DNA of 64,000 bases, from the NCBI GenBank assembly GCA_031384515.1, contig JANNAQ010000013.1, forward strand, positions 40,495-104,494, read 5' to 3'. Source of the DNA: Bacteroidia bacterium. GTDB taxonomy: Bacteria; Bacteroidota; Bacteroidia; Cytophagales; Cyclobacteriaceae. Position numbers and translations under genes: made by a program. A model generated the notes under the pieces. The model saw nothing but the letters and a program-made list of their open reading frames with translations. It was not told where the DNA came from and searched no databases. Shown here piece by piece: positions 26,115 to 45,644 of the stretch (its first letter is position 1; every line of letters begins with the position of its first letter).

Positions 26115-28454
26115 ATGGAAAAAAATATAGAAAAAATTGCCAATGAATTAAATCTCTCCACGCAACAAGTAGAGATTGTTATTGAAATGTTGGTAGAGGG
26201 AGCGACTATCCCTTTTATGGCGCGTTACCGAAAAGAAATGACTGGTAGCCTGGATGAAGTACAACTGGCGGCAATTCGCGATCGCCATGAACAGCTTATG
26301 GAGTTGGATAAACGCAAGGAGGCAATTCTTAAGTCGATTGAGAAGCAGGAAAGGTTAACACCTGCATTAGCAAAAGATATTGAGCAGGCTGAGACGATGG
26401 TGGCATTGGAGGACATCTACCTTCCCTACAAACCTAAACGCAAAACACGCGCCAGCATAGCCAAGGAAAAAGGGCTTGAGCCATTAGCACTAAGTTTATT
26501 TGAGCAAGGTAAATTGGAGGTGGATAAACTTGCGGCCACGTATATTAATACAGAGTTGGGTGTGGCTAACATACAAGAAGCATTGGAAGGAGCACGAGAT
26601 ATCATGGCAGAATGGATCAGTGAAAATCAGGAAGCACGGAAAAATATTCGCGAAATCTTCTGGCAAGACGGTATCATCGAAGCCTCTGTGATAAAATCAA
26701 AGGCAGAAACGGAAGAGGCTCAAAAGTTTAAGGATTATTTTGAGTGGAAAGAGCCGATCAAAAAAACCCCTTCACACCGATTGCTCGCCATGCGCAGAGC
26801 CGAGAAAGAAGGATTTATTTCTTTAGACATTGCCCCCACCGAAGCACTTGCTATACAAACTCTGGAAAAGCAATTTATAAAAACGTCATCGCCAGTAGGC
26901 GAACAAGTTGGTATGGCTATTAAAGATTCGTATAAACGATTGTTAAAACCTTCGCTCGAAAGCGAGGTTCGAATAGAATCCAAACAACAAGCCGATGTAG
27001 AAGCAATCAAAGTATTTTCTTCCAACCTTAAAGAATTGCTTCTGGCTTCTCCTCTGGGACAAAAGCGAGTGATGGCACTTGACCCCGGGTTCAGGTCGGG
27101 CACTAAATTAGTTGCGTTAGGTGAGCAAGGAGAATTGCTTTTCAATACAGTGATTTATCCATTAGAACCGCAGCGCGAAACAGATAAGTCATCGGCTATC
27201 GTGATGGGGTTGTGCGATCGATTTAAAATTGAGGCAATCGCCATTGGCAATGGAACAGCTAGTAGAGAGACTGAATCATTTGTTAAGTCGCTGGGTCTTC
27301 CAAAAGAAATTTTGATAGTGATGGTTAATGAAAGCGGAGCTTCCATTTATTCGGCCAGCGATGTTGCTCGTGAAGAGTTCCCAGATCATGACATCACGGT
27401 GCGAGGTGCTGTATCAATCGGAAGAAGATTGACTGACCCATTGGCTGAGTTGGTAAAGATTGATGCAAAGTCAATTGGTGTGGGTCAATACCAACATGAT
27501 GTAGATCAAGTTAAATTAAAAGCTGGGCTTGATGATGTGGTGATGAGTTGTGTCAACTCTGTTGGGGTAGAGGTAAATACTTCGAGTAGAGAATTACTTT
27601 CTTATGTATCCGGATTGGGGCCTCAATTAGCAAAGAGTATAGTTGAATATAGAAATCAAAATGGAGCCTTTAAAGACCGACATTCTTTGCATAATGTGCC
27701 TCGCTTGGGTGAAAAAGCGTTTGAACAGTGTGCCGGTTTTTTGCGCATTCGTGATTCAAAAAATCCGTTAGATGCTAGTGCCGTGCATCCCGAGCGTTAT
27801 GAGCTGGTCGAAAAATTTGCGAGTGACTTAGGATGCACAGTAAAAGATTTAATGACAAATGCCGAGGTGCGAAAGAAGCTTGACCTCAAAAATTATGTGA
27901 GCGACACCGTTGGACTGCCTACATTAACTGATATATTGTTAGAACTAGAAAAGCCAGGTCGTGATCCACGTGAAAAGTTTGAGGTATTTTCTTTTGAAGA
28001 AGGCATTCACGAAATAAAAGATTTGAAGGTGGGGATGATGTTACCTGGTATTGTTACCAACGTCACCAACTTCGGGGCGTTTGTAGATGTGGGTGTGCAT
28101 CAAGATGGTCTTGTGCACATTAGTCATTTGAGTGACCGGTTTATTAAAGACCCAAGCCAGGTTATTTCTGTTCAGCAAAAAGTAAAGGTTACTGTAGTAG
28201 AGGTTGATGTCGCGCGCAAGCGAATTGCGTTGTCGATGAAGAGTGATCCTTTTGGGAATGCGCCTGCGAAATCAAGTGAACAAAAAACTTCTTCGCAACA
28301 GTCGAAGCCAGGATCTAAGCGTTCGGATTCCAAACATCCGGGGTCTGTGTCCTCACAGACACCAAATAAGAAACACACTTCAAATGCTCCTCTGAAAAAA
28401 GAAGAGTCTATGGAAGATAAGCTGGCACAGTTGAGAGAGAAGTTTAAGAGATAA
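26115..28454 (+). CDS. tex: Tex family RNA-binding transcriptional accessory protein
   Basis: GATIPFMARYRKE, ALDPGFRSGTK (YqgF-like), HhH region, S1 domain GAFVDVGVHQDGLVHIS. Confidence 0.96.
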   Translation: MEKNIEKIANELNLSTQQVEIVIEMLVEGATIPFMARYRKEMTGSLDEVQLAAIRDRHEQLMELDKRKEAILKSIEKQERLTPALAKDIEQAETMVALEDIYLPYKPKRKTRASIAKEKGLEPLALSLFEQGKLEVDKLAATYINTELGVANIQEALEGARDIMAEWISENQEARKNIREIFWQDGIIEASVIKSKAETEEAQKFKDYFEWKEPIKKTPSHRLLAMRRAEKEGFISLDIAPTEALAIQTLEKQFIKTSSPVGEQVGMAIKDSYKRLLKPSLESEVRIESKQQADVEAIKVFSSNLKELLLASPLGQKRVMALDPGFRSGTKLVALGEQGELLFNTVIYPLEPQRETDKSSAIVMGLCDRFKIEAIAIGNGTASRETESFVKSLGLPKEILIVMVNESGASIYSASDVAREEFPDHDITVRGAVSIGRRLTDPLAELVKIDAKSIGVGQYQHDVDQVKLKAGLDDVVMSCVNSVGVEVNTSSRELLSYVSGLGPQLAKSIVEYRNQNGAFKDRHSLHNVPRLGEKAFEQCAGFLRIRDSKNPLDASAVHPERYELVEKFASDLGCTVKDLMTNAEVRKKLDLKNYVSDTVGLPTLTDILLELEKPGRDPREKFEVFSFEEGIHEIKDLKVGMMLPGIVTNVTNFGAFVDVGVHQDGLVHISHLSDRFIKDPSQVISVQQKVKVTVVEVDVARKRIALSMKSDPFGNAPAKSSEQKTSSQQSKPGSKRSDSKHPGSVSSQTPNKKHTSNAPLKKEESMEDKLAQLREKFKR
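28380..28454 (+). repeat. tex 3'-end direct repeat, copy 1 (in the intact gene)
   Basis: Encodes SNAPLKKEESMEDKLAQLREKFKR*; 64/75 identical to 38244-38318. Confidence 0.92.
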
Positions 28455-28465
28455 AGTGTCGTTTC

Positions 28466-29443
28466 TTATTTCTTTATAAAAATAAAATCTCCGCCTTCAT
28501 CGACTACATCCTGGATGACTCCAAATTGAGGAACAATGTGAGTATTATTGGAAATGGGCTCAAACATTCTGGAGAAGAGAAGACGCGATGACATAAATAC
28601 TTCCGGGTTATCTCCTAATTTCTTCAATAGGAATTCAACAAAAACACTTTTGTCTGGCACGGTGCTTAGGTTTCCACTCGTCATGGCCCGTCTACTTTTG
28701 TCTTTATACAATTCATTGAATTTCATGATCATACTTGACGCATCTGCCCCGCGGGTTTTAAAGATGCTGCCGCTAAAGCAGGCATCAGCAATGAGTAAGG
28801 TATGTTTGGATTTGATCGCGCCCAGATAATCCTTCAGTGTGCTATTCGGTATCCAGGTGCTTTTATCTTTTATGTTGGCATCGGAGGCTAGCCAATAGCC
28901 AAAGTCTTTTTGTTTATCCCACACACCGTGGCCAGCATAAAAAACCAATACATTATCACGTTCTGTTACTACTTCCGATAAATGCTCCAGGGCGTTAATG
29001 ACATCGCTGCGGGTAGGGTTAGCAAGGTATTTTATGCGCTCGTCATCAAACGTATAATTCTCTTTAAGTACTTGTCTAAGTCTTTCCGCATCTTTTACCG
29101 GTTGATCCAAATTAGGCAATTCGGTAGTGGCGTTTTTGTAGTGCGCCACTCCCATAATCAGCGCATAGTACCTTGGAAGGTTATCCGCTGTAATCCCCAA
29201 TGTCTGCAAGGTTACTACCGATCTCTCTTCTGCTCTTTTTTTCTCTTCTGCAATTCGCGTTTCCTCGGCAAGCCGTAATTCCTCGGCACTTCGGTTTTGT
29301 TCGTCAGCAATCCTCTTCTCCTCTGCTACTACTGAGGCACCTTTAAAATTAATGGCATTGCTTTTTACTCTTGTAGTTTGCGCGGTTGATACCAAGCTAC
29401 TAAAAAGGAGCAGTGTAAAAAAGATATTTTTTTTCATATCCAT
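28466..29443 (-). CDS. Secreted caspase-family (peptidase C14) protein
   Basis: Signal peptide, AEE-rich coiled coil, YALIMGV..Y, catalytic FYAGHG (His) and IADACFSG (Cys). Confidence 0.92.
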   Translation of the reverse strand: MDMKKNIFFTLLLFSSLVSTAQTTRVKSNAINFKGASVVAEEKRIADEQNRSAEELRLAEETRIAEEKKRAEERSVVTLQTLGITADNLPRYYALIMGVAHYKNATTELPNLDQPVKDAERLRQVLKENYTFDDERIKYLANPTRSDVINALEHLSEVVTERDNVLVFYAGHGVWDKQKDFGYWLASDANIKDKSTWIPNSTLKDYLGAIKSKHTLLIADACFSGSIFKTRGADASSMIMKFNELYKDKSRRAMTSGNLSTVPDKSVFVEFLLKKLGDNPEVFMSSRLLFSRMFEPISNNTHIVPQFGVIQDVVDEGGDFIFIKK

Positions 29444-29447
29444 TCTT

Positions 29448-32400
29448 TTAATTCAACACAATTCGATAGAAACTTCTGCGATCGGAATAGTGAAACCTTA
29501 AGAAATAAATGCCAGCGGCAGGGCGATCACCTGTAACGGTAAAGCCATTCCACCGCAATTCATGCGAACCTGAAACTAAATCACCGGTATAAACATCTGT
29601 TACTTTCTGACCCAATGAATTGATCAAGTCAATGCTCACCGGATAACCTTTTCCCCAACCTGGAAGAGAAACAGTAATTTTTGTTTCACCATGCGATGGA
29701 TTAGGTGAGACAGAAAGAATCTTGCCCTCCCCATTTGGCATTTCCTTGGAGAGGTACTCGGAGTTGCCAAAAATAATTTTGAATCTCCCCGGTGTTTTAA
29801 AAAAATAGGAGTTGATGGTTCGCATATTGATGGACGCCTTTTCATTCTCATCGATTAGAAATAATTCTTTTTCATTTCCAGTGAAATGACTATTTCCCCA
29901 GTTGATAGATGCAAATTCTTTTTTGTTATTTGACTCGACAATAAATTTCCATGAATAATTTTCTGAAGTTGGGACAACATCTTTTGAAAACGGATTTCCG
30001 TTGATGACATTCTCATGGTTTAAGTCGATGTATTCTATAAATCGAGGAAGGCTAACATCGTCATATTTATCAAACCCGATTTTAGCATCTGATTGCATTC
30101 CAATTCCTGAGATAGAATTAACCAATTCACCTTGCTTTAAATTCAAGGCTAACTCCCAACTAGCAGATTCAAATGGATTGGATGGCGCAGTTTTACTTTC
30201 TGATATTCTTCCGCTTTTACTCCTGGAAGGAGGAAAAATAAGAATAGAGGCTTGCTCTGCGAAGACGAAGCCGCCTTCCATTTTTTTCAGGACTGTGGAA
30301 TTATCATAGGGTGCGCCCGTAAATATTTTTAGGGGTCTTGTGCCAATGAAAGAATTGGCATTCTGAATGTCGCTCCAGTCGATATTGAAATTGTATGGAT
30401 TGCCGATTTGATTCCAGCCTTGTTTAAGTTGTATGCTGAAAGGACTCGAAACGGATTTGCCGGGACCACCTGTTAATGCTTTGCCCGGATTATTCTTTAT
30501 CAGCAACCAATATCCCCAACCTGTTTCGATCGGATCTGATGCTACTAATTCCTTTGTTGAGTTTCCATCCCAATGCGACAATCTCCAATTAAATTGATCG
30601 AACTGTCCCAATTCGTCAAAAACGTTTCCGGCATTTTTATTATCAAGTTGATATGGAAAAGAAATGATCCTGTAGTTGGATTGGCCTGAGCCAAAATTAT
30701 CATAGGGTAACGGTGGTCCATCTGAGGGTTGTTTCACCGCTACAGGGTAGTGGGGAGTTTGCTCAGCAAGACCTAAACCATTTAAAGCTGTTATCCAATA
30801 CTCAACACCAATCTCACCGATAGCAGATGCCGGTATGGTAGCAACCCAATTGTTGCCTGTCAACGTCATTTCCAAAATTACTTCAGTGCTGGTGGTCAAT
30901 CGGTTTTTATAAAACAAAGAAGCATTAGCCACTCCTGATTCCGGATCAGTTATTTGCGCAGTGATCGCCAGAGACACGTCCTTGTCAACAATTGCAATTG
31001 GCGAATGAACAATTACAGGCTTGGTTGAGTCAATGGATTTGTTGCCTGTAAGAGGCGAAGCAGTACGATAGTTGATGGTAACGCCACTGCCATTGTAAGC
31101 ATACACTTGATAGAAATAGTTTGTGCCTGCAGTCAATCCTGTTTCATTGAAGGTTACGGCTGTGCCTACATAAGCAATTGTTCCATCGCCTATTGGTGAT
31201 GCAACTGCGTAGCCAGTCGCGTCCACTGGAAGGGATGTGGCTACTGATCCAGCTTTGCGAACTACTAGATATCCCGATGGTGTTCCGGTCGCTGCGGTGA
31301 AAGAAACGGTAAACGTAGTTGACCCTACATTGGAGAATACAAGTGCCGTTGGTTGAGAAGCAGGCTCCGTTGCTAACGTACTCTTACTTCCTTCAAGAGG
31401 TGAGGCAGTAAGATAGTTGAGGGTTGATCCGCTTCCATTGTAGGAAAAGACATCATAGAAATAAGTTGTTGAGGCGGTCAGCCCTGTTTCATTGAATGTT
31501 AAAGCGCTACCCACATACGCCACGGTACTTGCGCCAATTGCATTGCCAGTTGTGTATTCTGTTCCATCAAGCGGTACATCAGTAGGAGAAGAAACAGTTT
31601 TGCGTAGAACAATGTAACCGGCAGGCGAACCTAAAGCAGCTGTCCATGATAAGGTCATTGAAGTTGCCTGAACGTTGGAGAATAAAAGAGAAGTTGGTTG
31701 TGCGGTTGGTTCGGACGCAAGAGCTGGACTGGTGGTCTGATTGTTTTCAAGCGGACTAGTTGTTAGGTAATTATATGTTCCCGTTATTCCGTTGTAGGAG
31801 AAGATATCGTAGAAATATGTTGTTGAAGCAGTAAGTCCTGTTTCATTAAAAGTTAAAGCACTACCCACATACGCTACAGTGCTTGTGCCGATCGTATTGG
31901 TTGCCGAATATTCTGTTCCATCCAAAGGCACATCAGTTGGCGAAGAAACAGTTTTTCGAATAACGACATAACCAGCACGAGAGCCAGTCGCTGCTGTCCA
32001 ACTCAAGGTCATTGAAGTTGGTTGAACGCTGGAAAACGTAAGTGCTGTAGGTTGGGCAGTTGGTTCTGTTGCAAGTGTAGGACTGGTGGTCTGGTTATTT
32101 TCAAGCGGGCTAGTTGTTAAATAATTATACGTACCCGTTGTTCCGTTGTAGGAGAAGACATCATAAAAGTAATTTGTAGAAGGGATAAGCCCTGTTTCAA
32201 TGAAAGTTATTCCGCCAGCTGCATACGCTACGGTGCTGGTGCCAATCAGGTTGGTTGCGGAATATTCTGTTCCATCAACTGGCACATCTGTGGGAGAAGA
32301 AACAGTCTTGCGGAGAACAAGGTAACCTGCTGGAGAGCCAGTAGCGGCAATCCATGTTAACGTTATTGAAGTTGCCTGAACACTAGAAAAGCTGAGTGCA

Positions 32401-35400
32401 GTTGGTTGTGCGGTTGGTGGAGCAGCTAAAGTTGTTTGGGTTCCTACGAGCGGAGCAAGAGTTAAGTAATTATATGTACCCGTTGTTCCGTTGTAGGAAA
32501 ATACCTTGTAGAAATAATTTGTTGACGGTGCAAGACCTGTTTCATTAAAAGTTAACGCACTACCTGCATACGCCACGGTACTGGTGCCGATCGTATTGCC
32601 TGTTATGTATGCCGTTGCATCCACCGGTATATCGGTTAGCGAAGAAACAGTATTGCGAAGAACAATGTAACCGGCTGGAGAACTTGAAGCGGCTGCCCAG
32701 GTTAAGTTCATCGTAGTTGACTGAACGTTTGTAAAAATTAAAGAAGTTGGTTGTGCTGTTGGTTCAGTGGCAAGCGTTGTTTGATTATTTTCAAGTGGAC
32801 TTGTTGTTAGGTAATTATAAGTTCCCGTTGTTCCGTTGTACGAGAATACATCATAGAAGTAAGCAGTTGATGCAGTAAGTCCTGTTTCATTGAATGTTAA
32901 GGTACTGCCTACATATGCTACAGTGCTTGTGCCAATAGAGCCTGTTGCGGTATAAGATATTTCATCTACTGGAACGTCAGTAGGAGAAGACCCTGTTTTA
33001 CGAAGAACAAGATAGCCAGTAGGTGAACCTGTAGCTGCTGTCCAGTTTAAGGTCATTGAAGTTGGTTGAATGCTAGAGAATAAAAGGGAAGTAGGTTGCG
33101 TTGTCGGTTCCGTTGCAAGAGCAGAGCTCGTTGTTTGATTATTTTCAAGTGGACTAGTTGTTAAGTAATTGTATGTTCCGGTAGTTCCATTATAAGAGAA
33201 TACATCGTAGAAATAAGTAGTTGAAGCAGTAAGCCCAGTTTCATTAAACGTTAGGGCACTACCTGCATACGCTACGGTGCTGGTGCCAATCGTATTGGAT
33301 GCGGTGTATGCAGTTCCATCCACGGGCACATCGGTAGGAGATGAGCCTACTTTTCGAAGAACAATATAACCAACTGGAGAACCTGTCGCTGCTGTCCATG
33401 TTAAAGTCATTGAGTTCAATTGAACGCTGGAGAATAAAAGAGAAGTTGGTTGAGCCGTTGGCTCAGGTGCAAGGGTTGGGCTCGTTGTCTGATTGTTTTC
33501 GAGCGGAGTGGTAATTAAATAATTATACGTCCCCGTAGTTCCATTGTAAGAGAAGACATCATAAAAGTAATTTGTAGAAGGGATAAGCCCCGTTTCAATG
33601 AAAGTTATCCCGCTAGCTGCATACGCTACAGTGCTGGTGCCGATCAGGTTGGTTGCGGAATATTCTGTTCCATCCACGGGCACATCTGTGGGAGAAGAAA
33701 CAGTTTTGCGAAGTACGATATAACCAGCAGGAGAACCTGTTGCTGCTGTCCATGTTAAGGTCATTGAAGTAGATTGAATACTGGAGAAAGAAAGTGAAGT
33801 GGGTTGTGCAGTTGGTTCAGGGGCTAAAGTTGTAAGATTATTTACGAGCGGAACAGTTGTTAGATAATTGAACGTTCCTGTTGTTCCGTTGAAGGAGAAT
33901 ACATTGTAGAAATAATTCGTTGAAGCGGTAAGTCCAGTTTCATTGAATGTTAAAGCACTACCTGCATACGCCACTGTGCTTGTTCCTATGGTGTTGCCTA
34001 TTGTGTACACCGTTCCATCTACCGGCACATCTGTAGGCGAAGAAACAGTATTGCGAAGAACAATGTAACCTACCGGAGAGCCAGAAGCTGCTGCCCAGGT
34101 TACAGTCATAGTAGATGCCTGAATAGTAGTAAAAGTTAAAGAAGTGGGTTGCGCAGTTGGTTCAGAGGCTAAAGTTGTTTGACTTCCTTCCAGTGGCGTT
34201 GTGGTTAAATAATTATAAGTTCCGGTTGTTCCGTTGTAAGAGAATACATCGTAGAAATAAGTTGTTGAAGCGGTAAGCCCCGTTTCATTTAATGTTAAAG
34301 CATTGCCTGCATACGCTACGGTGCTGGTTCCAATTGCGTTGCCTATTGTGTATGCCGTTCCATCTATGGGTATCTCCGTTGGAGAAGAAATTGTTTTGCG
34401 AAGTACGATATAACCAGTTGGAGAACCTATTGCTGCTGTCCATGATAAGGTCATCGTAGTTGGCTGAACGCTGGAAAACGTAAGTGCTGTAGGTTGAGCA
34501 GTTGGTTCTGTTGCAAGGGTAGGACTGGTTGTCTGATTATTTTCGAGCGGACTAGTTGTTAAGTAATTATACGTTCCCGTAGTTCCATTATAAGAGAAGA
34601 TGTCATAGAAATAATTTGTTGAAGCGGTAAGACTTGTTTCATTAAAAGTTAATGCACTTCCTACATACGCTACGGTGCTGGTTCCAATTGTGTTGCCTAT
34701 TGTATATGCCGTTCCATCTATGGGCACATCCGTTGGAGAAGAAATTATTTTGCGAAGTACGATATAACCAGTTGGAGAACCTGTCGCTGCTGTCCATGAT
34801 AAGGTCAGCGAAGTTGGCTGAACGCTGGAAAACGTAAGTGCTGTAGGTTGAGCAGTTGGTTCTGAGATAATAGTAGTATTTCTAAAAACAGAAATCGAAT
34901 TATTTCCATTTCCCACTACTAAATCAGGCTTTCCATCACCGTCAATATCAGCAATGTTGACATCGTAGGAGGATTGCGTTTTTGGGAAATCAATTTTTGC
35001 GGCAAAAGAACTTGTATTGATCACACCGGATGAGCTGGTGTTTTTGTACACAGAGACGGTGTTGGTGCTTTCGCAAACAACTGCAATCTCCAGCTTCCCA
35101 TCACCATCAAGGTCACCCAATGCAACTCCTAAAGGTCTTGTGCCTGTCGTGAAATCAATATTGGCAGCAAAGGAACCCGTTGTGATTATCCCCTGGGTGG
35201 AAATGTTTCTGAATACAGAGACTTTAGCCCCTTGCAGAAGTACGACAGCAAGGTCAGGCTTGCCATCACCATCCAGATCACCAATGCCTACTCGGTTAGT
35301 CGGGCCACTGCCAGTAGTAAGATTAACTGTTGAAGCAAAGGAACCAGCCGAGATGGAACCTAAAGTAGAGGTGTTTTTCAATATAGAAATGTTATTGCTG

Positions 35401-37358
35401 TTGCCATTGGCAACCACCAATTCTGGTTTACCGTCAGCATCCAAATCTGCGATGTTAACATTTAATGGATTTGTTCCTACAGTAAAATCAATTTTGGGAG
35501 CAAATGAACTTGTGGTGATCGCTCCCGTGGTGTAGATATTTTGAAAAACCGAAACCGTAGTACCATCATTATTGGCAACCACCAAATCAGCCTTCCCGTC
35601 ACCATCCAAATCACCTATGATAGCACCCGATGCTCTTGTCGTGGTGGCCAAGTCTACCCTGGATCCAAAAGAACCTGAAGTGATTGATCCCGCAGTACTC
35701 GTATTTTGGAATATCGATACCGAACTGCTCGTGTAATTCGTTACTACCATATCCAGTTTCCCGTCACCGTCAAGGTCAGCAAGCGCCATACCTGAAGGTC
35801 TTGTGCCCGGGGTAAAGTCAACCTTTGTAGCAAAGGAGCTACCGGTGATTGCTCCCGCACTACTCGTATTTCTCAACACTGAAACCGATGAGCCCGTATA
35901 ATTTGATACTGCCATGTCCGACTTACCATCCCCATCGAGGTCGCCAACTCCTACAAAATAAGATTCATTCTCTGCTGTAGTGAAGTCCACCTTGGTGGCA
36001 AAAGAGCTCGCATCGATAATTCCGCTGCTTGGAAATGTTACGATAAACGGTTTGCTCGAATAAGCCGTAAGTCCACCTGTTGTTATTGTAATAGGTTGGT
36101 AGGTTGCACCAGTTGGCACAGTCACTGTAAGTTGTGTTGCTGATGCATTCGTTACAGTTGCTTTGGTAGCACCAAAGTAAATGATGTTGTTTGTTGGGGA
36201 TGTACTGAAGTTTGTGCCGGTGATTATAACGGTTGTGCCTACTGGGCCACTTGTAGGGGTGAAACTGGTTATTGCAGGTGGAAGTGTGTAAATATCTACA
36301 ACATTTGAAATTGAACTTCCTGAAGCATCACTTCCACCACCAAAAAATGCCATTGTCCCAAGAGCAGTCGCGCTTAAATAACCTCGTGCTTCGGAAAGCG
36401 TGGCTGTAGTCCAGTTATTAGTACTGTTGTCATAAATATCAACAACATTGGAATTACTTCCATTGTTGCCTCCTGCAAAAAAAACTTTATTCCCTACTGA
36501 ACTAGAACTTAGACCCTCTCTTGCCTGAGAGAGAGTTGCGGTTGACCATATATTGGTGTTATTGTCATATACATCTACCACATTGGAACTAACGCCATTG
36601 TTACCACCCGCAAAAAAAACTTTAGTCCCAACGGAAGTGGCAGTTAAATACCACCTTGCTTGCGAGAGAGTGGCGGTTGTCCAGGTATTGTTACTGTTGT
36701 CATAGATATCCACAACATTGGAAGGAACTGAAGCACTAGTACTACCTCCAGCAAAAAAAACTTTAGTCCCAACTGAGGTTGCGCTCGAATAGTACCTCGC
36801 TTGAGAGAGTGTAGCCGTTGCCCAGGTATTAGAGCTGTTATCATAAATATCCACAACATTGGAAGCCGCTAAACCATTGTGCCCGCCTGCAAAAAATACT
36901 TTGGTGCCTACTGAAGTCGCAACTAAAATACTCCGTGCCTCAGAAAGATTTGCCGTTGTCCATGTACTTGTACTATTGTCGAATATGTCAACTACATTTG
37001 AATTGGTACCATTATCCCCACCTGCAAAAAAAACTTTAGTTCCAATGGAGGCAGCACTTAATGAGCACCGTGCCTGAGACAATGTTGCTGTAGTCCAAGT
37101 GTTAGTACTATTATCATAAATATCAATAACATTGGAACAATTAGGTACATTATTATATCCTCCTGCAAAAAAGACTTTAGTTCCAACCGATGCTGCGCTT
37201 AGTTGAGTACGCGCCTGAGAAAGAGTAGCCGTAGTCCATTGAGCCTGTGCTACAGTTGAAATAAAAAGCCCTGTTAGGGTGATCAATAGGACAATGAGCA
37301 ATCTTGATTTTTTTATTGCGAGTCTGATATAACAATATTTTATAAAGTCATCCTTCAT
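29448..37358 (-). CDS. 2636-aa T9SS-type surface protein: 7 kelch-like repeats, IPT/TIG, FG-GAP repeats, 11 FN3-like repeats, C-terminal sorting domain
   Basis: 7x W.TA.LS.AR...VFFAGG; PAITSFTPTSGPVGT; multiple GDLDGDGK.D; 11x EPTAQPT..F...W..A; C-terminal SVSPNPS...LINSLGQKV...WNG....GIYFL. Confidence 0.92.
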   Translation of the reverse strand: MKDDFIKYCYIRLAIKKSRLLIVLLITLTGLFISTVAQAQWTTATLSQARTQLSAASVGTKVFFAGGYNNVPNCSNVIDIYDNSTNTWTTATLSQARCSLSAASIGTKVFFAGGDNGTNSNVVDIFDNSTSTWTTANLSEARSILVATSVGTKVFFAGGHNGLAASNVVDIYDNSSNTWATATLSQARYYSSATSVGTKVFFAGGSTSASVPSNVVDIYDNSNNTWTTATLSQARWYLTATSVGTKVFFAGGNNGVSSNVVDVYDNNTNIWSTATLSQAREGLSSSSVGNKVFFAGGNNGSNSNVVDIYDNSTNNWTTATLSEARGYLSATALGTMAFFGGGSDASGSSISNVVDIYTLPPAITSFTPTSGPVGTTVIITGTNFSTSPTNNIIYFGATKATVTNASATQLTVTVPTGATYQPITITTGGLTAYSSKPFIVTFPSSGIIDASSFATKVDFTTAENESYFVGVGDLDGDGKSDMAVSNYTGSSVSVLRNTSSAGAITGSSFATKVDFTPGTRPSGMALADLDGDGKLDMVVTNYTSSSVSIFQNTSTAGSITSGSFGSRVDLATTTRASGAIIGDLDGDGKADLVVANNDGTTVSVFQNIYTTGAITTSSFAPKIDFTVGTNPLNVNIADLDADGKPELVVANGNSNNISILKNTSTLGSISAGSFASTVNLTTGSGPTNRVGIGDLDGDGKPDLAVVLLQGAKVSVFRNISTQGIITTGSFAANIDFTTGTRPLGVALGDLDGDGKLEIAVVCESTNTVSVYKNTSSSGVINTSSFAAKIDFPKTQSSYDVNIADIDGDGKPDLVVGNGNNSISVFRNTTIISEPTAQPTALTFSSVQPTSLTLSWTAATGSPTGYIVLRKIISSPTDVPIDGTAYTIGNTIGTSTVAYVGSALTFNETSLTASTNYFYDIFSYNGTTGTYNYLTTSPLENNQTTSPTLATEPTAQPTALTFSSVQPTTMTLSWTAAIGSPTGYIVLRKTISSPTEIPIDGTAYTIGNAIGTSTVAYAGNALTLNETGLTASTTYFYDVFSYNGTTGTYNYLTTTPLEGSQTTLASEPTAQPTSLTFTTIQASTMTVTWAAASGSPVGYIVLRNTVSSPTDVPVDGTVYTIGNTIGTSTVAYAGSALTFNETGLTASTNYFYNVFSFNGTTGTFNYLTTVPLVNNLTTLAPEPTAQPTSLSFSSIQSTSMTLTWTAATGSPAGYIVLRKTVSSPTDVPVDGTEYSATNLIGTSTVAYAASGITFIETGLIPSTNYFYDVFSYNGTTGTYNYLITTPLENNQTTSPTLAPEPTAQPTSLLFSSVQLNSMTLTWTAATGSPVGYIVLRKVGSSPTDVPVDGTAYTASNTIGTSTVAYAGSALTFNETGLTASTTYFYDVFSYNGTTGTYNYLTTSPLENNQTTSSALATEPTTQPTSLLFSSIQPTSMTLNWTAATGSPTGYLVLRKTGSSPTDVPVDEISYTATGSIGTSTVAYVGSTLTFNETGLTASTAYFYDVFSYNGTTGTYNYLTTSPLENNQTTLATEPTAQPTSLIFTNVQSTTMNLTWAAASSSPAGYIVLRNTVSSLTDIPVDATAYITGNTIGTSTVAYAGSALTFNETGLAPSTNYFYKVFSYNGTTGTYNYLTLAPLVGTQTTLAAPPTAQPTALSFSSVQATSITLTWIAATGSPAGYLVLRKTVSSPTDVPVDGTEYSATNLIGTSTVAYAAGGITFIETGLIPSTNYFYDVFSYNGTTGTYNYLTTSPLENNQTTSPTLATEPTAQPTALTFSSVQPTSMTLSWTAATGSRAGYVVIRKTVSSPTDVPLDGTEYSATNTIGTSTVAYVGSALTFNETGLTASTTYFYDIFSYNGITGTYNYLTTSPLENNQTTSPALASEPTAQPTSLLFSNVQATSMTLSWTAALGSPAGYIVLRKTVSSPTDVPLDGTEYTTGNAIGASTVAYVGSALTFNETGLTASTTYFYDVFSYNGSGSTLNYLTASPLEGSKSTLATEPASQPTALVFSNVGSTTFTVSFTAATGTPSGYLVVRKAGSVATSLPVDATGYAVASPIGDGTIAYVGTAVTFNETGLTAGTNYFYQVYAYNGSGVTINYRTASPLTGNKSIDSTKPVIVHSPIAIVDKDVSLAITAQITDPESGVANASLFYKNRLTTSTEVILEMTLTGNNWVATIPASAIGEIGVEYWITALNGLGLAEQTPHYPVAVKQPSDGPPLPYDNFGSGQSNYRIISFPYQLDNKNAGNVFDELGQFDQFNWRLSHWDGNSTKELVASDPIETGWGYWLLIKNNPGKALTGGPGKSVSSPFSIQLKQGWNQIGNPYNFNIDWSDIQNANSFIGTRPLKIFTGAPYDNSTVLKKMEGGFVFAEQASILIFPPSRSKSGRISESKTAPSNPFESASWELALNLKQGELVNSISGIGMQSDAKIGFDKYDDVSLPRFIEYIDLNHENVINGNPFSKDVVPTSENYSWKFIVESNNKKEFASINWGNSHFTGNEKELFLIDENEKASINMRTINSYFFKTPGRFKIIFGNSEYLSKEMPNGEGKILSVSPNPSHGETKITVSLPGWGKGYPVSIDLINSLGQKVTDVYTGDLVSGSHELRWNGFTVTGDRPAAGIYFLRFHYSDRRSFYRIVLN

Positions 37359-37398
37359 TTATTCGGTGTAAAGAGCAAGCCTTTTCATAAACTTCATT

Positions 37399-38106
37399 TT
37401 AATTTCCCGTTGGTGGTTCCGGTGCATTAGGCAATCCTTCCTTTGAGTCGGGCAACAATAAATAAACAACAACTCCTACTATAACCACCGCAGGAGAAAT
37501 CAACCAGGCCAAAGCAACTTTTCTTTTTACTTGTATGGGTATTGTTACTTTATCATCCTTTGATGTCAGTTGTATGTGATAGCCTTTGCCCAAGGTTAAG
37601 TTGGGGTCGGGCTGTAGATTTAAAGTTCCGGTTTTGTTGAGTATCGTTTTTTTCCAAAGCACTTTCTTGTCAGCAGAAATAAATTCGAAATGAATGGAAT
37701 CCTGTGGCCGCCCGCCACTCCATTCAATTGTATTTTCTTTCCCTCTGCGTAAAGATTTTTGTGGAGTTACAAATCTCAAGTGAAAAATCACCTCGGCCTC
37801 CAGTTCAAATGCCAGGTCTCCGCTGAAGTTGTCCAGCTCATGGCCATACAGCCATTCAATTTGCTTGTTTGCACCAGGTGTTACTTTAGCAACAGCACCA
37901 GAAATATTTGCCAGTGGCTTTGAAAAAGCATCATGCGAACTGAAGACTTTTAGTTCTACCCAGGAATCGGTTGGTGCCGTTTATAAATCATATTCAAGAA
38001 TGATTTTATCAGCTTCAATCCTTGTCCTTACATTTTCAATGACTTGCGAAAAGGCAGATTGACACCAAAGGAGGGTAAAACAAACCTGAAGGAACTTTGA
38101 ATACAT
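37399..38106 (-). pseudogene. Exported protein with a C-terminal TM anchor, interrupted by an in-frame TAA at codon 42
   Basis: ATG at 38106 gives signal peptide MYSKFLQVCFTLLWCQSAFS-QVIENVR...; TAA at 37981-37983; the same frame continues open into track ORF 37399..37791. Confidence 0.8.
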
Positions 38107-38243
38107 GTATCGAAGTCTTGCGTAAAGAGAAAATACACCATGTTAAATCTACACAATATAAATTGGTTACAAAAAACGGGGGAGATTATTGCAAGGAGTA
38201 AGGCTTATGCTTTGAATAAGGGGCTTTAATAAAGAAGCCCTCC

Positions 38244-38318
38244 TCAAATGCTCCCGTAAAAAAAGAGGAATCTATAGAGGATAAACTGGCACAATTGAGA
38301 GAGAAGTTTAAGAAGTAA
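38244..38318 (+). repeat. tex 3'-end direct repeat, copy 2 (orphan tail)
   Basis: Encodes SNAPVKKEESIEDKLAQLREKFKK* with no upstream gene; weak homology extends to about 38232. Confidence 0.92.
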
Positions 38319-38352
38319 CAGATACAGTTTGCAAAACCGTATCTTTCTTTCT

Positions 38353-39318
38353 ATGAAGGGAATACTATTGTTAGCATCGATACTATTTGCTTATTCAGCA
38401 TCCGCACAGCGCATTAGTAATACGGCACTATATCGCAATGTAAGTTCAAACCAATATTTTCGTATTCATTACGAAAATGATTATTTCTCCACCACCGATA
38501 TTTATTACACCCAAGGCATTAATCTCGAGTATGTACACCCTGCCATCGGAAACTTTTTTACTTCAAAGCTATTAATTGGCTCGTCTTCCAAAGAAGTTAA
38601 ATTTGGAATTGCTCTGGAGCATGAAGGATACACCCCCACCAGTATTTCACATCCTGAAGTTCTTGTAGGCGACAGACCCTTTGCTGCTTGTTTGTTTCTT
38701 AAAACCTTCTCTATAATAAATGATTCAGTACGCAGAGTCCGTATTTCTTCTTCTCTTAGCGCAGGCGTAATCGGCCCAAGCGCATATGGCAAAGAAATGC
38801 AGGAAACTATCCATAGATGGATCAACGATACGCAACCGCTTGGATGGGAAAATCAGATTAACAACGATCTTATCCTCAATTATGAAGTTGAATATGTAGC
38901 TGAACTTTTCGCCTCTCCCGATTATTTTTCTCTCTCGGCCCAGGTTGGTGCCAATGTAGGCACGCTCAATGCAAAAGCCTTTACAGGAGTAATCATGATG
39001 GCTGGTATTTTTGATAATCCATTTATCAATTTTTCCAGGCAAAAAAGATTGAAACAAGTGTATGTGTATGCAGAACCCTTGCTGAACATTGTTGCCTACG
39101 ATGCCACCTTGCAAGGTGGTATGTTCAATAAAAATAGCCCTTACACAATACCTCGCGAAGATATTACGCGTTTGGTTTTTCAGGCAAATGTTGGAATTGT
39201 TGTTCGGATCAGGGCATTGCAGTTGGAATATTTCCAATCCTATCTCACCAAAGAATTTAGTACCGGTGGCACACATCTTTGGGGCGGCATTCGAATCGGA
39301 TGGTACCTACGTAAGTGA
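38353..39318 (+). CDS. Lipid A deacylase LpxR-family (DUF2219) outer membrane protein, copy 1
   Basis: HYENDYF..TD.YYTQG, YTPT.I......DRPFA, GWENQI, C-terminal WGGIRIGW; ATG at 38353 gives a signal peptide. Confidence 0.82.
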   Translation: MKGILLLASILFAYSASAQRISNTALYRNVSSNQYFRIHYENDYFSTTDIYYTQGINLEYVHPAIGNFFTSKLLIGSSSKEVKFGIALEHEGYTPTSISHPEVLVGDRPFAACLFLKTFSIINDSVRRVRISSSLSAGVIGPSAYGKEMQETIHRWINDTQPLGWENQINNDLILNYEVEYVAELFASPDYFSLSAQVGANVGTLNAKAFTGVIMMAGIFDNPFINFSRQKRLKQVYVYAEPLLNIVAYDATLQGGMFNKNSPYTIPREDITRLVFQANVGIVVRIRALQLEYFQSYLTKEFSTGGTHLWGGIRIGWYLRK

Positions 39319-39412: not shown

Positions 39413-39817
39413 TCACTTCGTCCAGTTTGCAATGTCAAGTCCTTTAATCCGCTTGAAGTGGTCTGAGTTATTTGTAACAAGTTGAAATTCACTCGTCATG
39501 GCTATACCTGCTATCAAAGTATCCGTATGCCCTATTTCTGTTCCTTTTCTTCATAGGTCAGCTTGAATTATGGCTGCCGCTTTTGCCATACGCAATGTCA
39601 ACGGAACTACTTTGTTTAATTCTACAAATTCTTCAAACCTTGTTAATTGTTTTCTTGCGTCCTTGTATAAAAGTCCGTTGAGAATTTCATAATAAGTGAT
39701 GATGCTTAAACTGATGAAGCCATGCTCCTTCAGGTGTTCGTCAACTTTTGCAATAACCTTCGGGTTGCCTCGTAAAAATTCCGAGAGAACATCGGTGTCA
39801 AGCATTGAGGGTTTCAT
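39413..39817 (-). pseudogene. vapC: VapC/PIN toxin with an in-frame TGA at codon 89
   Basis: MLDTDVLS, SIITYYEILNG; after TGA (39551-53) the same frame continues RKGTEIGHTDTLIAGIA...LVTNNSDHFKRIKGLDIANW. Confidence 0.88.
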
Positions 39818-40059
39818 AAGTCAATGCTGCGGTCAAAGAGCGTTGTCCTTGATTTTTTGGGTTGATTAAGAAAATCCGCATAGTCCTTGTTGCTCATGTC
39901 GCTAAAAGCTCCGCCAAATGAAAGAATTTTCTTCCGCAATCCATCTGAGGCAGATTGTTTGGTAGGAGGTGTCAGAGAATGAACAAACTGATAGAGTTCT
40001 TCTAACCGGTTAACCGGAACATCTTTCATCTCTTTTAAAATGGAATTTAATGTCAACAT
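39814..40059 (-). CDS. Putative antitoxin
   Basis: 81-aa ORF whose stop overlaps the PIN gene start (ATGA); own -7 element at 40077-40084. Confidence 0.7.
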   Translation of the reverse strand: MLTLNSILKEMKDVPVNRLEELYQFVHSLTPPTKQSASDGLRKKILSFGGAFSDMSNKDYADFLNQPKKSRTTLFDRSIDL

Positions 40060-44663: not shown

Positions 44664-45644
44664 ATGGGCATTGAACTTGTGAAAAAAGTAATTCTTCTCG
44701 CTTCCATGGGGATAGCATCTTCTACCTTAGGGCAACGCATCAACACGACTGCGTTGTATCGCAACGTCAGCGCGCAAAAGTATTTTCGGCTTCACTATGA
44801 GAACGATTATTTCTCAACCACCGACATCTATTATACACAAGGCATTAATCTTGAGTACGTACATCCAACGATTGGAAATTTTTTTACGTCCAGATTATTG
44901 GTGCATTCGGATTCGAAGGATGTTAAATTTGGCATTTCCCTTGAACACGAAGCGTATACACCTACCAGCATTGCTCACTCCGAAATTCTAGTGGGAGACC
45001 GGCCTTTCGCGGCAGTAGTATTTTTCAATACCTTTTCGGTTGTAAGTGATGCTATTCGCAGAGAGCGTGTTTCGTCTTCTCTTAGTGCAGGTGCAATCGG
45101 ACCTGTCGCGGGCGGTAAAGAAATACAGGAGACAATTCATCGCTGGATCAATGACACTCAACCGCAGGGGTGGCAGAACCAGATCCGTCTCGATGTTATC
45201 CTGAACTATCAGATAGACTACGAGCGGGAACTTTTAATGTATCCAAATCATTTTTTACTTTCTGGAAAAGCGGGTGCCCGTGTAGGCACCTTGAATACGA
45301 AAGCGTATGCAGGGGTTATTTTAATGGCTGGTTATTTTGACGATCCGTTTAAAGACTTTTCAAAACAAGAGAGAAAATTGCAAGCTTATCTGTATGCAGA
45401 GCCATTATTTCAAATTATTGGGTATGATGCAACATTACAGGGCGGCTTAGTTCATCGGGCCAGTCCCTATACTATATCAGTGAGTGACATCAGCCGATGG
45501 GTTTTGCAGGGAAACGTTGGCCTGGTTGTTAAAATTAATAGGGTGCAAGTGGAGTATTTTCAGTCCTACCTTACAAAAGAATTTGAAACAGGAGGGTCTC
45601 ATCTGTGGGGTGGAATTCGAATAGGCTGGTATTTAGACAGGTAA
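44664..45644 (+). CDS. LpxR-family (DUF2219) outer membrane protein, copy 2
   Basis: Collinear paralog of 38353-39318, roughly two-thirds identical by eye. Confidence 0.82.
   Translation: MGIELVKKVILLASMGIASSTLGQRINTTALYRNVSAQKYFRLHYENDYFSTTDIYYTQGINLEYVHPTIGNFFTSRLLVHSDSKDVKFGISLEHEAYTPTSIAHSEILVGDRPFAAVVFFNTFSVVSDAIRRERVSSSLSAGAIGPVAGGKEIQETIHRWINDTQPQGWQNQIRLDVILNYQIDYERELLMYPNHFLLSGKAGARVGTLNTKAYAGVILMAGYFDDPFKDFSKQERKLQAYLYAEPLFQIIGYDATLQGGLVHRASPYTISVSDISRWVLQGNVGLVVKINRVQVEYFQSYLTKEFETGGSHLWGGIRIGWYLDR

Follow-up and report, generated by a model that had tools for sequence, protein, structure and literature searches.

Caspase homologues are numerous in bacteria, where they are mostly discussed in connection with cell death or immunity inside the cell, and to our knowledge, a natural substrate is known for almost none of them. 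The metacaspases Yca1, AtMC4, and MC9, as well as the paracaspase MALT1, cut after basic residues. As regards dedicated proteolysis of surface proteins, the LapA/LapG/LapD system is an adhesin-release switch of Pseudomonas. In Porphyromonas, PorU and the gingipains are clan CD cysteine proteases that process type IX secretion system (T9SS) cargo, and the gingipains cut polyprotein adhesins after Arg or Lys, the resulting pieces staying on the surface (PMC4560394, PMC4804311). A 2012 survey of prokaryotic metacaspases mentioned a possible signal peptide in some of them and nothing further on a system of this kind, and our literature search turned up no report of a C14 protease that is exported and associated with T9SS cargo. 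Here, we analyzed a 64-kb stretch of DNA from a soil Cytophagales bacterium (hereafter the window, to which all coordinates refer), in which such a protease gene stands in a row of three: gene A, a small membrane-protein gene interrupted by a TAA codon (37399-38106), gene B, encoding a giant secreted protein of 2,636 amino acids (29448-37358), and gene C, encoding an exported C14 protease of 325 amino acids (28466-29443). All three lie on the minus strand, as do the features described within them, and their open reading frames (ORFs) and translations place 40 nt between A and B and 4 nt between B and C, in agreement with the co-orientation and spacing that the initial annotation of this DNA had reported. 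Overall, the trio is a genuine module, conserved, present in several copies, and apparently undescribed.

The part of B that recurs from copy to copy is its C-terminal tail (29451-31019), delimited by an AlphaFold2 (AF2) model and by comparison of paralogues, whose conserved part is roughly 520 amino acids long and which we queried as the last 546 residues of B (query P0003). In the AF2 model, built from 27 homologues with a predicted local distance difference test score (pLDDT) of 85.8, this tail folds into four beta-rich domains, namely an immunoglobulin (Ig)-like domain D1 (30729-31019; tail residues 24-120), D2 (30219-30686; residues 135-290), D3 (29739-30161; residues 310-450), and a T9SS type A sorting domain (29451-29726; residues 455-546) that corresponds to TIGR04183. 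Besides the N-terminal lead-in, the sole disordered stretch of the model is a loop between D2 and D3 (30183-30218; residues 291-302; pLDDT below 50). The TIGR04183 match is marginal but consistent: it reaches 25.3 bits on the last 110 residues of B for a cut-off of 23, which upholds the earlier claim that B is a giant T9SS protein, and 22.6 bits on a 650-residue piece of B, while many homologues of the tail carry the PF18962 sorting domain. The T9SS route moreover exists in this host, because PorU is present in its genome (NF033707, 1,278 bits for a cut-off of 420, at G000:C69). Pfam and NCBIfam have no family for the tail outside of the sorting domain, and its D2-D3 part constitutes a protein family without a Pfam model.

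The association between the three genes proved recurrent, first of all within the genome itself. Three tail-bearing giants of 2,636, 1,898, and 4,265 amino acids are encoded there, each with one of three C14 paralogues adjacent and an A homologue nearby, in the order A-B-C in the window and on contig 11 and in the order B-A-C on contig 80, and the tails, at 33-36% identity, are the only part that the three giants have in common. A search of 60 relatives with the D2-D3 part as the query, added to loci collected beforehand, brought the tail-bearing loci of this genome and these relatives to 43, of which 40 were assessable, three ending at a contig edge. A caspase gene adjoins the tail gene in 34 of these 40 loci (in the six others, the 1.5-4.5 kb retrieved contains no caspase gene), an A-like gene is present wherever the relevant flank is visible, and the genes come in five orders (A-B-C, B-A-C, B-C-A, C-A-B, and C-A divergent from B). 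The same partnership is found on a Bacteroidota chromosome and on a Cyclobacteriaceae contig, in C-A-B and B-C orders. Among the 80 caspase loci from other species that are closest to C, a tail lies directly upstream in 14, accompanied by A in all nine of those with a visible flank. Neighborhood conservation had been put forward in the initial annotation as the check on its proposed module, and both the adjacency of tail and caspase in relatives and the three copies in this genome pass this check; the outcome named there as a refutation, a failure of the genes to co-occur elsewhere, was not what we found. Across 35 modules, the pairwise distances of the three parts are correlated (Mantel r of 0.65 for A-B, 0.77 for A-C, and 0.60 for B-C, all p <= 0.0005), which shows each module to diversify as one unit; since such co-variation could also come from linkage alone, it is no proof of physical contact.

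With regard to the protease, C matches the Peptidase_C14 family (PF00656) over residues 93-234 with 57.4 bits for a cut-off of 21.4 (E = 2.2e-15). Its sequence starts with a signal peptide (29381-29443), followed by a strand motif at the mature N-terminus that is conserved in homologues (29336-29380), a charged linker defined by homologue alignment (29216-29335), and the catalytic domain recognized by Pfam (28469-29176). In an alignment of 16 sequences, His172 (28928-28930, within AGHG), Cys222 (28778-28780, within DACFSG), Asp118 (29090-29092), and Asp220 (28784-28786, the first position of the DxC motif) are all invariant, so the exported C14 caspase with an intact His-Cys dyad described from the letters of the window stands firm. 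The short coiled coil described along with it turns out to be an E/K/R-rich linker of variable length, without counterpart in most homologues. The N-terminal motif, K-(S/T)-N-x-(I/V)-x-(V/L)-(D/N)-(Y/F), comes directly after the signal-peptide cleavage site (after Gln) and is present in nearly all B-linked caspases. In a profile search of solved structures, the best matches of C are Yca1, AtMC4, and MC9, which are metacaspases, together with the paracaspase MALT1. Asp118 of C aligns with the Asp of the "IND" motif of Yca1, and the positions of Asp118 and Asp220 are presumably those of the metacaspase S1 pocket. C may thus be specific for a basic residue ahead of the bond that it cuts, which fits a cleavage after Arg. 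Neither a C25 nor a PorU match is detected in C, NF033707 matching only the sorting domain of B, and C carries no T9SS signal or sorting domain; it is therefore predicted to be periplasmic, so that any encounter with the cargo would take place during export and not at the surface.

The membrane partner A is built of a signal peptide, two Ig-like domains, a C-terminal hydrophobic helix (37450-37518), and a Pro-rich tail ending in Asn. Alignments of homologues place an invariant Lys, in a K-x-K motif, before this helix and an acidic, Pro-rich, and usually Asn-ended tail after it. An AF2 model of an intact orthologue with 60% identity, carried by a soil metagenome contig (L159), consistently has two Ig-like beta-sandwiches and one C-terminal helix (pLDDT 81). 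The only Pfam match of A is a weak one to Kre9_KNH, its N-domain is a protein family without a Pfam model, and GGDEF, EAL, and HAMP domains are all absent from A, which has only its two Ig-like domains. Foldseek comparisons with the PDB returned generic matches with low TM-scores, for the models of A and of the tail of B (multi-beta-sandwich proteins, among them PorU through its sorting domain, the MG domains of complement/A2M, and basigin), and no functional inference is therefore possible from these matches. Since the N-domain of A and the caspase are fused in one ORF in other lineages, the two probably bind each other.

The D2-D3 loop of B provides a candidate target for the protease. It is variable in sequence and length except for a Gly-Arg pair (Gly2383-Arg2384, 30207-30212), a putative protease site on the grounds of conservation and of the model, whose Arg (R294 of P0003) is almost invariant among the aligned tails. 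All sets taken together, 42 of 49 caspase-linked tails have Arg at the site, and among the same-order caspase-linked tails Gly-Arg is found in 38 of 45 and Arg in 40 of 45, versus Arg in one of 17 unlinked tails from distant classes, four more of which have Lys. This contrast fits a protease site, though it is confounded by clade membership. In the mechanism that we propose, B would fold in the periplasm before its export by the T9SS, and C, which is metacaspase-like and predicted to be Sec-exported, would cut the tail after Arg2384, in the exposed Gly-Arg loop between D2 and D3. The cut would split the payload (Kelch through D2) from a cell-proximal stub (D3 and the sorting domain), the part that PorU would anchor, and B would be either released or turned into a two-chain mature form. 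A, with its two Ig-like ectodomains and C-terminal hydrophobic anchor, would bind C through its N-domain and position or restrain it. The cleavage of B by C, the Gly-Arg pair as the cut site, the place of the cut, and the role of A are what we infer from sequences and predicted structures, and we hold this specific mechanism, in which C cleaves the tail at Gly-Arg and A docks or restrains C, tentatively, with a confidence that stops just short of even. That the trio is a functional module is much more probable.

Several observations weigh against the proposed cleavage. The main difficulty is its location, because a cut in the periplasm would separate the payload from its export signal if the two fragments came apart; C would thus have to cut before export with the fragments staying associated, to ride out with B, or to act on copies of B whose export has failed. 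As for the site itself, the loss of Arg from same-order tails without a neighboring caspase was not seen, five of the six tails without a caspase in the fetched stretch keeping it, and no support comes from that test, while seven caspase-linked tails (L131, L150, L154, L155, L074, L190, and L188) are devoid of this Arg. The caspase-linked tails are moreover one clade, and the correlation of Arg with the caspase is confounded by phylogeny. Besides, the partners occur apart. Among the 80 caspase loci, 26 have an A-type partner but no giant, the A-type N-domain being adjacent in about 19 of them and fused into the caspase ORF in seven, and 40 have neither. The tail occurs in 52 genomes of an even sample of 401 from Bacteroidota (35 of 179 genera). 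Of 20 loci sampled, 16, almost all in other classes, have neither a caspase nor A nearby, from which it follows that the tail does not need the protease; in these 20 loci, the trio is present in all three from the family of the window and in one of the 17 from other families. The fusions show the A-C pair to be the older core, to which B was added in one clade, and B may be one client among several.

Pushed further, this would mean that the A-caspase pair is the real unit, devoted to envelope proteolysis or signaling with other targets, that the giants are neighbors or one client, and that the Gly-Arg loop is a structural feature specific to a clade and not a cut site. The loci in which the A-type N-domain accompanies a caspase without any giant, the tails without a caspase in other classes, and the Arg kept in tails with no caspase nearby all speak in this direction, as does the distance correlation of A with C, which exceeds the two others. 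However, the caspases closest to C are almost all directly downstream of a tail, the adjacency of tail and caspase in relatives holds through five gene orders, and each of the three paralogous copies in this genome keeps its own B, so we consider this alternative unlikely, albeit a serious one.

The role assigned to A in the cleavage mechanism faces objections of its own. A is broken in the window, carries a frameshift in L035, a related module, keeps only its second domain in L031, where a short A lacks the N-domain, and is missing in L224, whose caspase is 74% identical and whose 9.7-kb contig has no A; A may therefore be dispensable in the sub-clade of the window. In addition, the charges around the helix of A (Lys/Arg on the N-flank, an acidic tail beyond) reverse the positive-inside pattern of a stop-transfer anchor, which makes the membrane topology of A uncertain. 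The initial annotation had taken A for a membrane-anchored protein. A is, however, no intact ORF of 236 codons: an in-frame TAA occupies codon 42 (37981-37983), and the longest open piece, of 130 amino acids, is without a signal peptide. Because the L159 orthologue is intact and has Asn at the position of this TAA, the copy of the window is either a nonsense pseudogene or the product of a base error, and with A broken, the module runs without its own A, relies on a paralogous A, or is decaying. The last option, a remnant in which A is truncated and the module is non-functional here whatever the family does elsewhere, draws on the TAA, read against the intact orthologue, and on the frameshift in L035. 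Against it, B (7.9 kb) and C are fully open, C and the tail are respectively 94.6% and 90.7% identical to those of an orthologue on another contig (L223), two intact paralogous A genes exist elsewhere in the same genome, L224 is a related module without any A on its contig, and the TAA could be a sequencing error. On balance, decay of this copy seems to us rather unlikely.

The invariant Lys just before the helix of A, together with the atypical charge layout around it, lends itself to another reading, in which C would not release B but act as a sortase-like transpeptidase, cutting at Gly-Arg or at this juxtamembrane Lys and ligating the product to an envelope component, thereby providing a covalent anchor for the giant. 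The clan CD enzymes PorU and GPI transamidase are known to perform transpeptidation, although no C14 member is known to do so. Also in favor of this reading, the tail of B sits upstream of an ordinary sorting domain of the PorU type. That being said, sequences do not separate ligation from hydrolysis, no acceptor is evident, and the genome already has PorU, itself a transpeptidating clan CD enzyme (PMC4560394). We accordingly give ligation by C very little credit as compared with hydrolysis after Arg2384.

Upstream of its tail, B displays a composite architecture. Pfam recognizes, after the signal peptide, a Kelch propeller (about 36309-37226), a TIG domain (36060-36278), FG-GAP repeats (about 34905-36011), and about 11 FN3 units (about 31059-34900) that lead to the tail. 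At the nucleotide level, the FN3 stalk is a tandem array (31378-34882) of 10 copies of a 345/354-nt unit with 73-86% identity. Since L223 has only about two FN3 units despite its 90.7%-identical tail, the length of the stalk varies between close relatives. We propose that B is a polymorphic giant surface protein, in which a variable payload is mounted on a constant tail of roughly 520 residues. Elsewhere, in genus g5, two tail-bearing giants (L127:2446-7065 and L128:4557-9179) contain about 10 tandem Kre9/KNH-like domains, equivalent to the second domain of A; a short A (second domain and helix) comes before each of them, and no caspase lies within 4.5 kb. A fusion of A and B was entertained for these two loci and rejected, the repeats of the second domain of A being located inside B instead.

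Some modules have additional neighbors. Next after the contig 11 trio, and overlapping it by 4 nt, comes a gene for a papain-like C1 peptidase/DUF4384 protein with a signal peptide (L039:13413-14765), a possible fourth component. Genes for a LytTR response regulator and a histidine kinase lie immediately upstream of the contig 80 trio, whose B has 4,265 amino acids (L040:17562-19883), and a LytTR gene is also near L041. In genome G003, one tail-bearing giant has two caspase genes in tandem after it (L126:2127-4561).

In the window, the trio lies between tex, which is convergent with it, and lpxR. An 87-nt direct repeat of the tex 3' end, detected by repeat search with 83% identity between copies and a spacing of 9,864 nt, flanks it on both sides, one copy lying within tex, as identified by its domains (28368-28454, plus strand), and the other, an orphan second tex 3' end with its stop codon, upstream of lpxR (38232-38318, plus strand). 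Bracketed by these repeats, genes A, B, and C therefore sit in a 9.8-kb cassette, with which no integrase is present. An empty tex-lpxR site was not found, tex and lpxR being non-adjacent in all 60 relatives, and the tail of the closest tex orthologue (G027) is slightly nearer to the in-gene copy of the repeat than to the orphan. A second lpxR paralogue (44679-45638) is 68% identical to the first (38329-39318) and lies 6 kb from it. Just beyond lpxR, a truncated-looking PIN-domain gene (88 amino acids) and a small upstream ORF occupy 39551-40059, and the related module L224 is likewise preceded by toxin-antitoxin-like genes. A scan of the locus for sigma-70 promoters and terminators gave counts at chance level, with a sigma-70 model that does not fit Bacteroidota promoters.

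Such surroundings could evoke a conflict or defense device, in which B would be a hypervariable surface sensor triggering an exported caspase, by analogy with the caspase immune systems of the cytoplasm. In this regard, the payloads of B are highly polymorphic and multi-copy, the cassette is bracketed by duplicated tex ends near toxin-antitoxin genes, and the nearest NCBIfam model of C (NF047832, EACC1-associated) describes conflict-system caspases. Yet C scores only 74 bits against this model, well below its cut-off of 140, and the PADLOC defense models return nothing beyond a generic caspase-domain match for C, with no match for the tail or for A; in view of these scores, we discarded the conflict-system reading. 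The trio also has no NTPase, effector, or toxin domain, and all three of its parts bear export signals, so a defensive role appears highly improbable.

Taken as a whole, the module may represent a multi-copy surface-display system of Cytophagales and their relatives, in which polymorphic T9SS giants share a constant tail that would be cut at Gly-Arg by a cognate exported metacaspase-like protease docked on an Ig-domain partner. In this complete form, we regard the proposal as possible, with our expectation leaning against it. The adhesin display/release module imagined in the initial annotation survives in part: the trio recurs, its parts co-diverge, A-caspase fusions exist, and the Gly-Arg loop is a candidate site, but the A gene is broken here and the features that define LapG/LapD and PorU are lacking. 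If true, the cleavage of B by C would provide bacterial caspase homologues with their first defined extracytoplasmic, non-death function and with a defined natural substrate. As it stands, the module genetically nominates a substrate, a candidate bond (after Arg2384), and a partner for an exported caspase, and it suggests how Bacteroidota could mount, and perhaps shed, interchangeable giant adhesins, with a bearing on how Cytophagales of soil and water form biofilms, glide, and attach to particles.

Compared with LapA/LapG/LapD, the trio would follow the same logic, in that a giant adhesin built of repeats goes together with an exported cysteine protease of its own and with a small partner in the inner membrane to which this protease could be held, but the two systems have no homologous parts. 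LapG is a transglutaminase-like protease of family C93 (BTLCP), whereas C belongs to C14; LapA uses type I secretion and has its cut site within a retention module at the N-terminus, whereas the candidate site of B is in a C-terminal tail before a T9SS domain; and LapD relies on GGDEF/EAL domains to sense c-di-GMP, where A offers no more than a Pro-rich tail of 16-25 residues. PorU and the gingipains, for their part, belong to family C25, act at the surface, and each bear a sorting domain, whereas C is a C14 protease without such a domain and with a predicted periplasmic location. Furthermore, PorU cuts at the junction of the sorting domain, about 250 residues downstream of the site proposed for C, and the PorU of this host is encoded elsewhere in the genome, separately from C. 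The parallels with LapG/LapA and PorU drawn in the initial annotation are thus analogies only, given a protease that is neither C93 nor C25, an A without GGDEF, EAL, or HAMP, and a C without a sorting domain. The closest kinship is with metacaspases and bacterial orthocaspases (MEROPS C14B; Yca1, PDB 4f6o; Arabidopsis MC4, PDB 6w8s), with which C shares the Peptidase_C14 domain, the His-Cys dyad, the DxC motif, and a second conserved Asp aligned to the presumed S1 region, which supply its best matches among solved structures, and from which an Arg/Lys specificity at P1 is expected for C by likeness. Unlike these enzymes, C has no link to cell death, is exported by a signal peptide instead of being cytoplasmic, carries a conserved strand motif right after this peptide, and has a genetic association with the tail of a T9SS cargo protein and with a membrane partner made of Ig domains.

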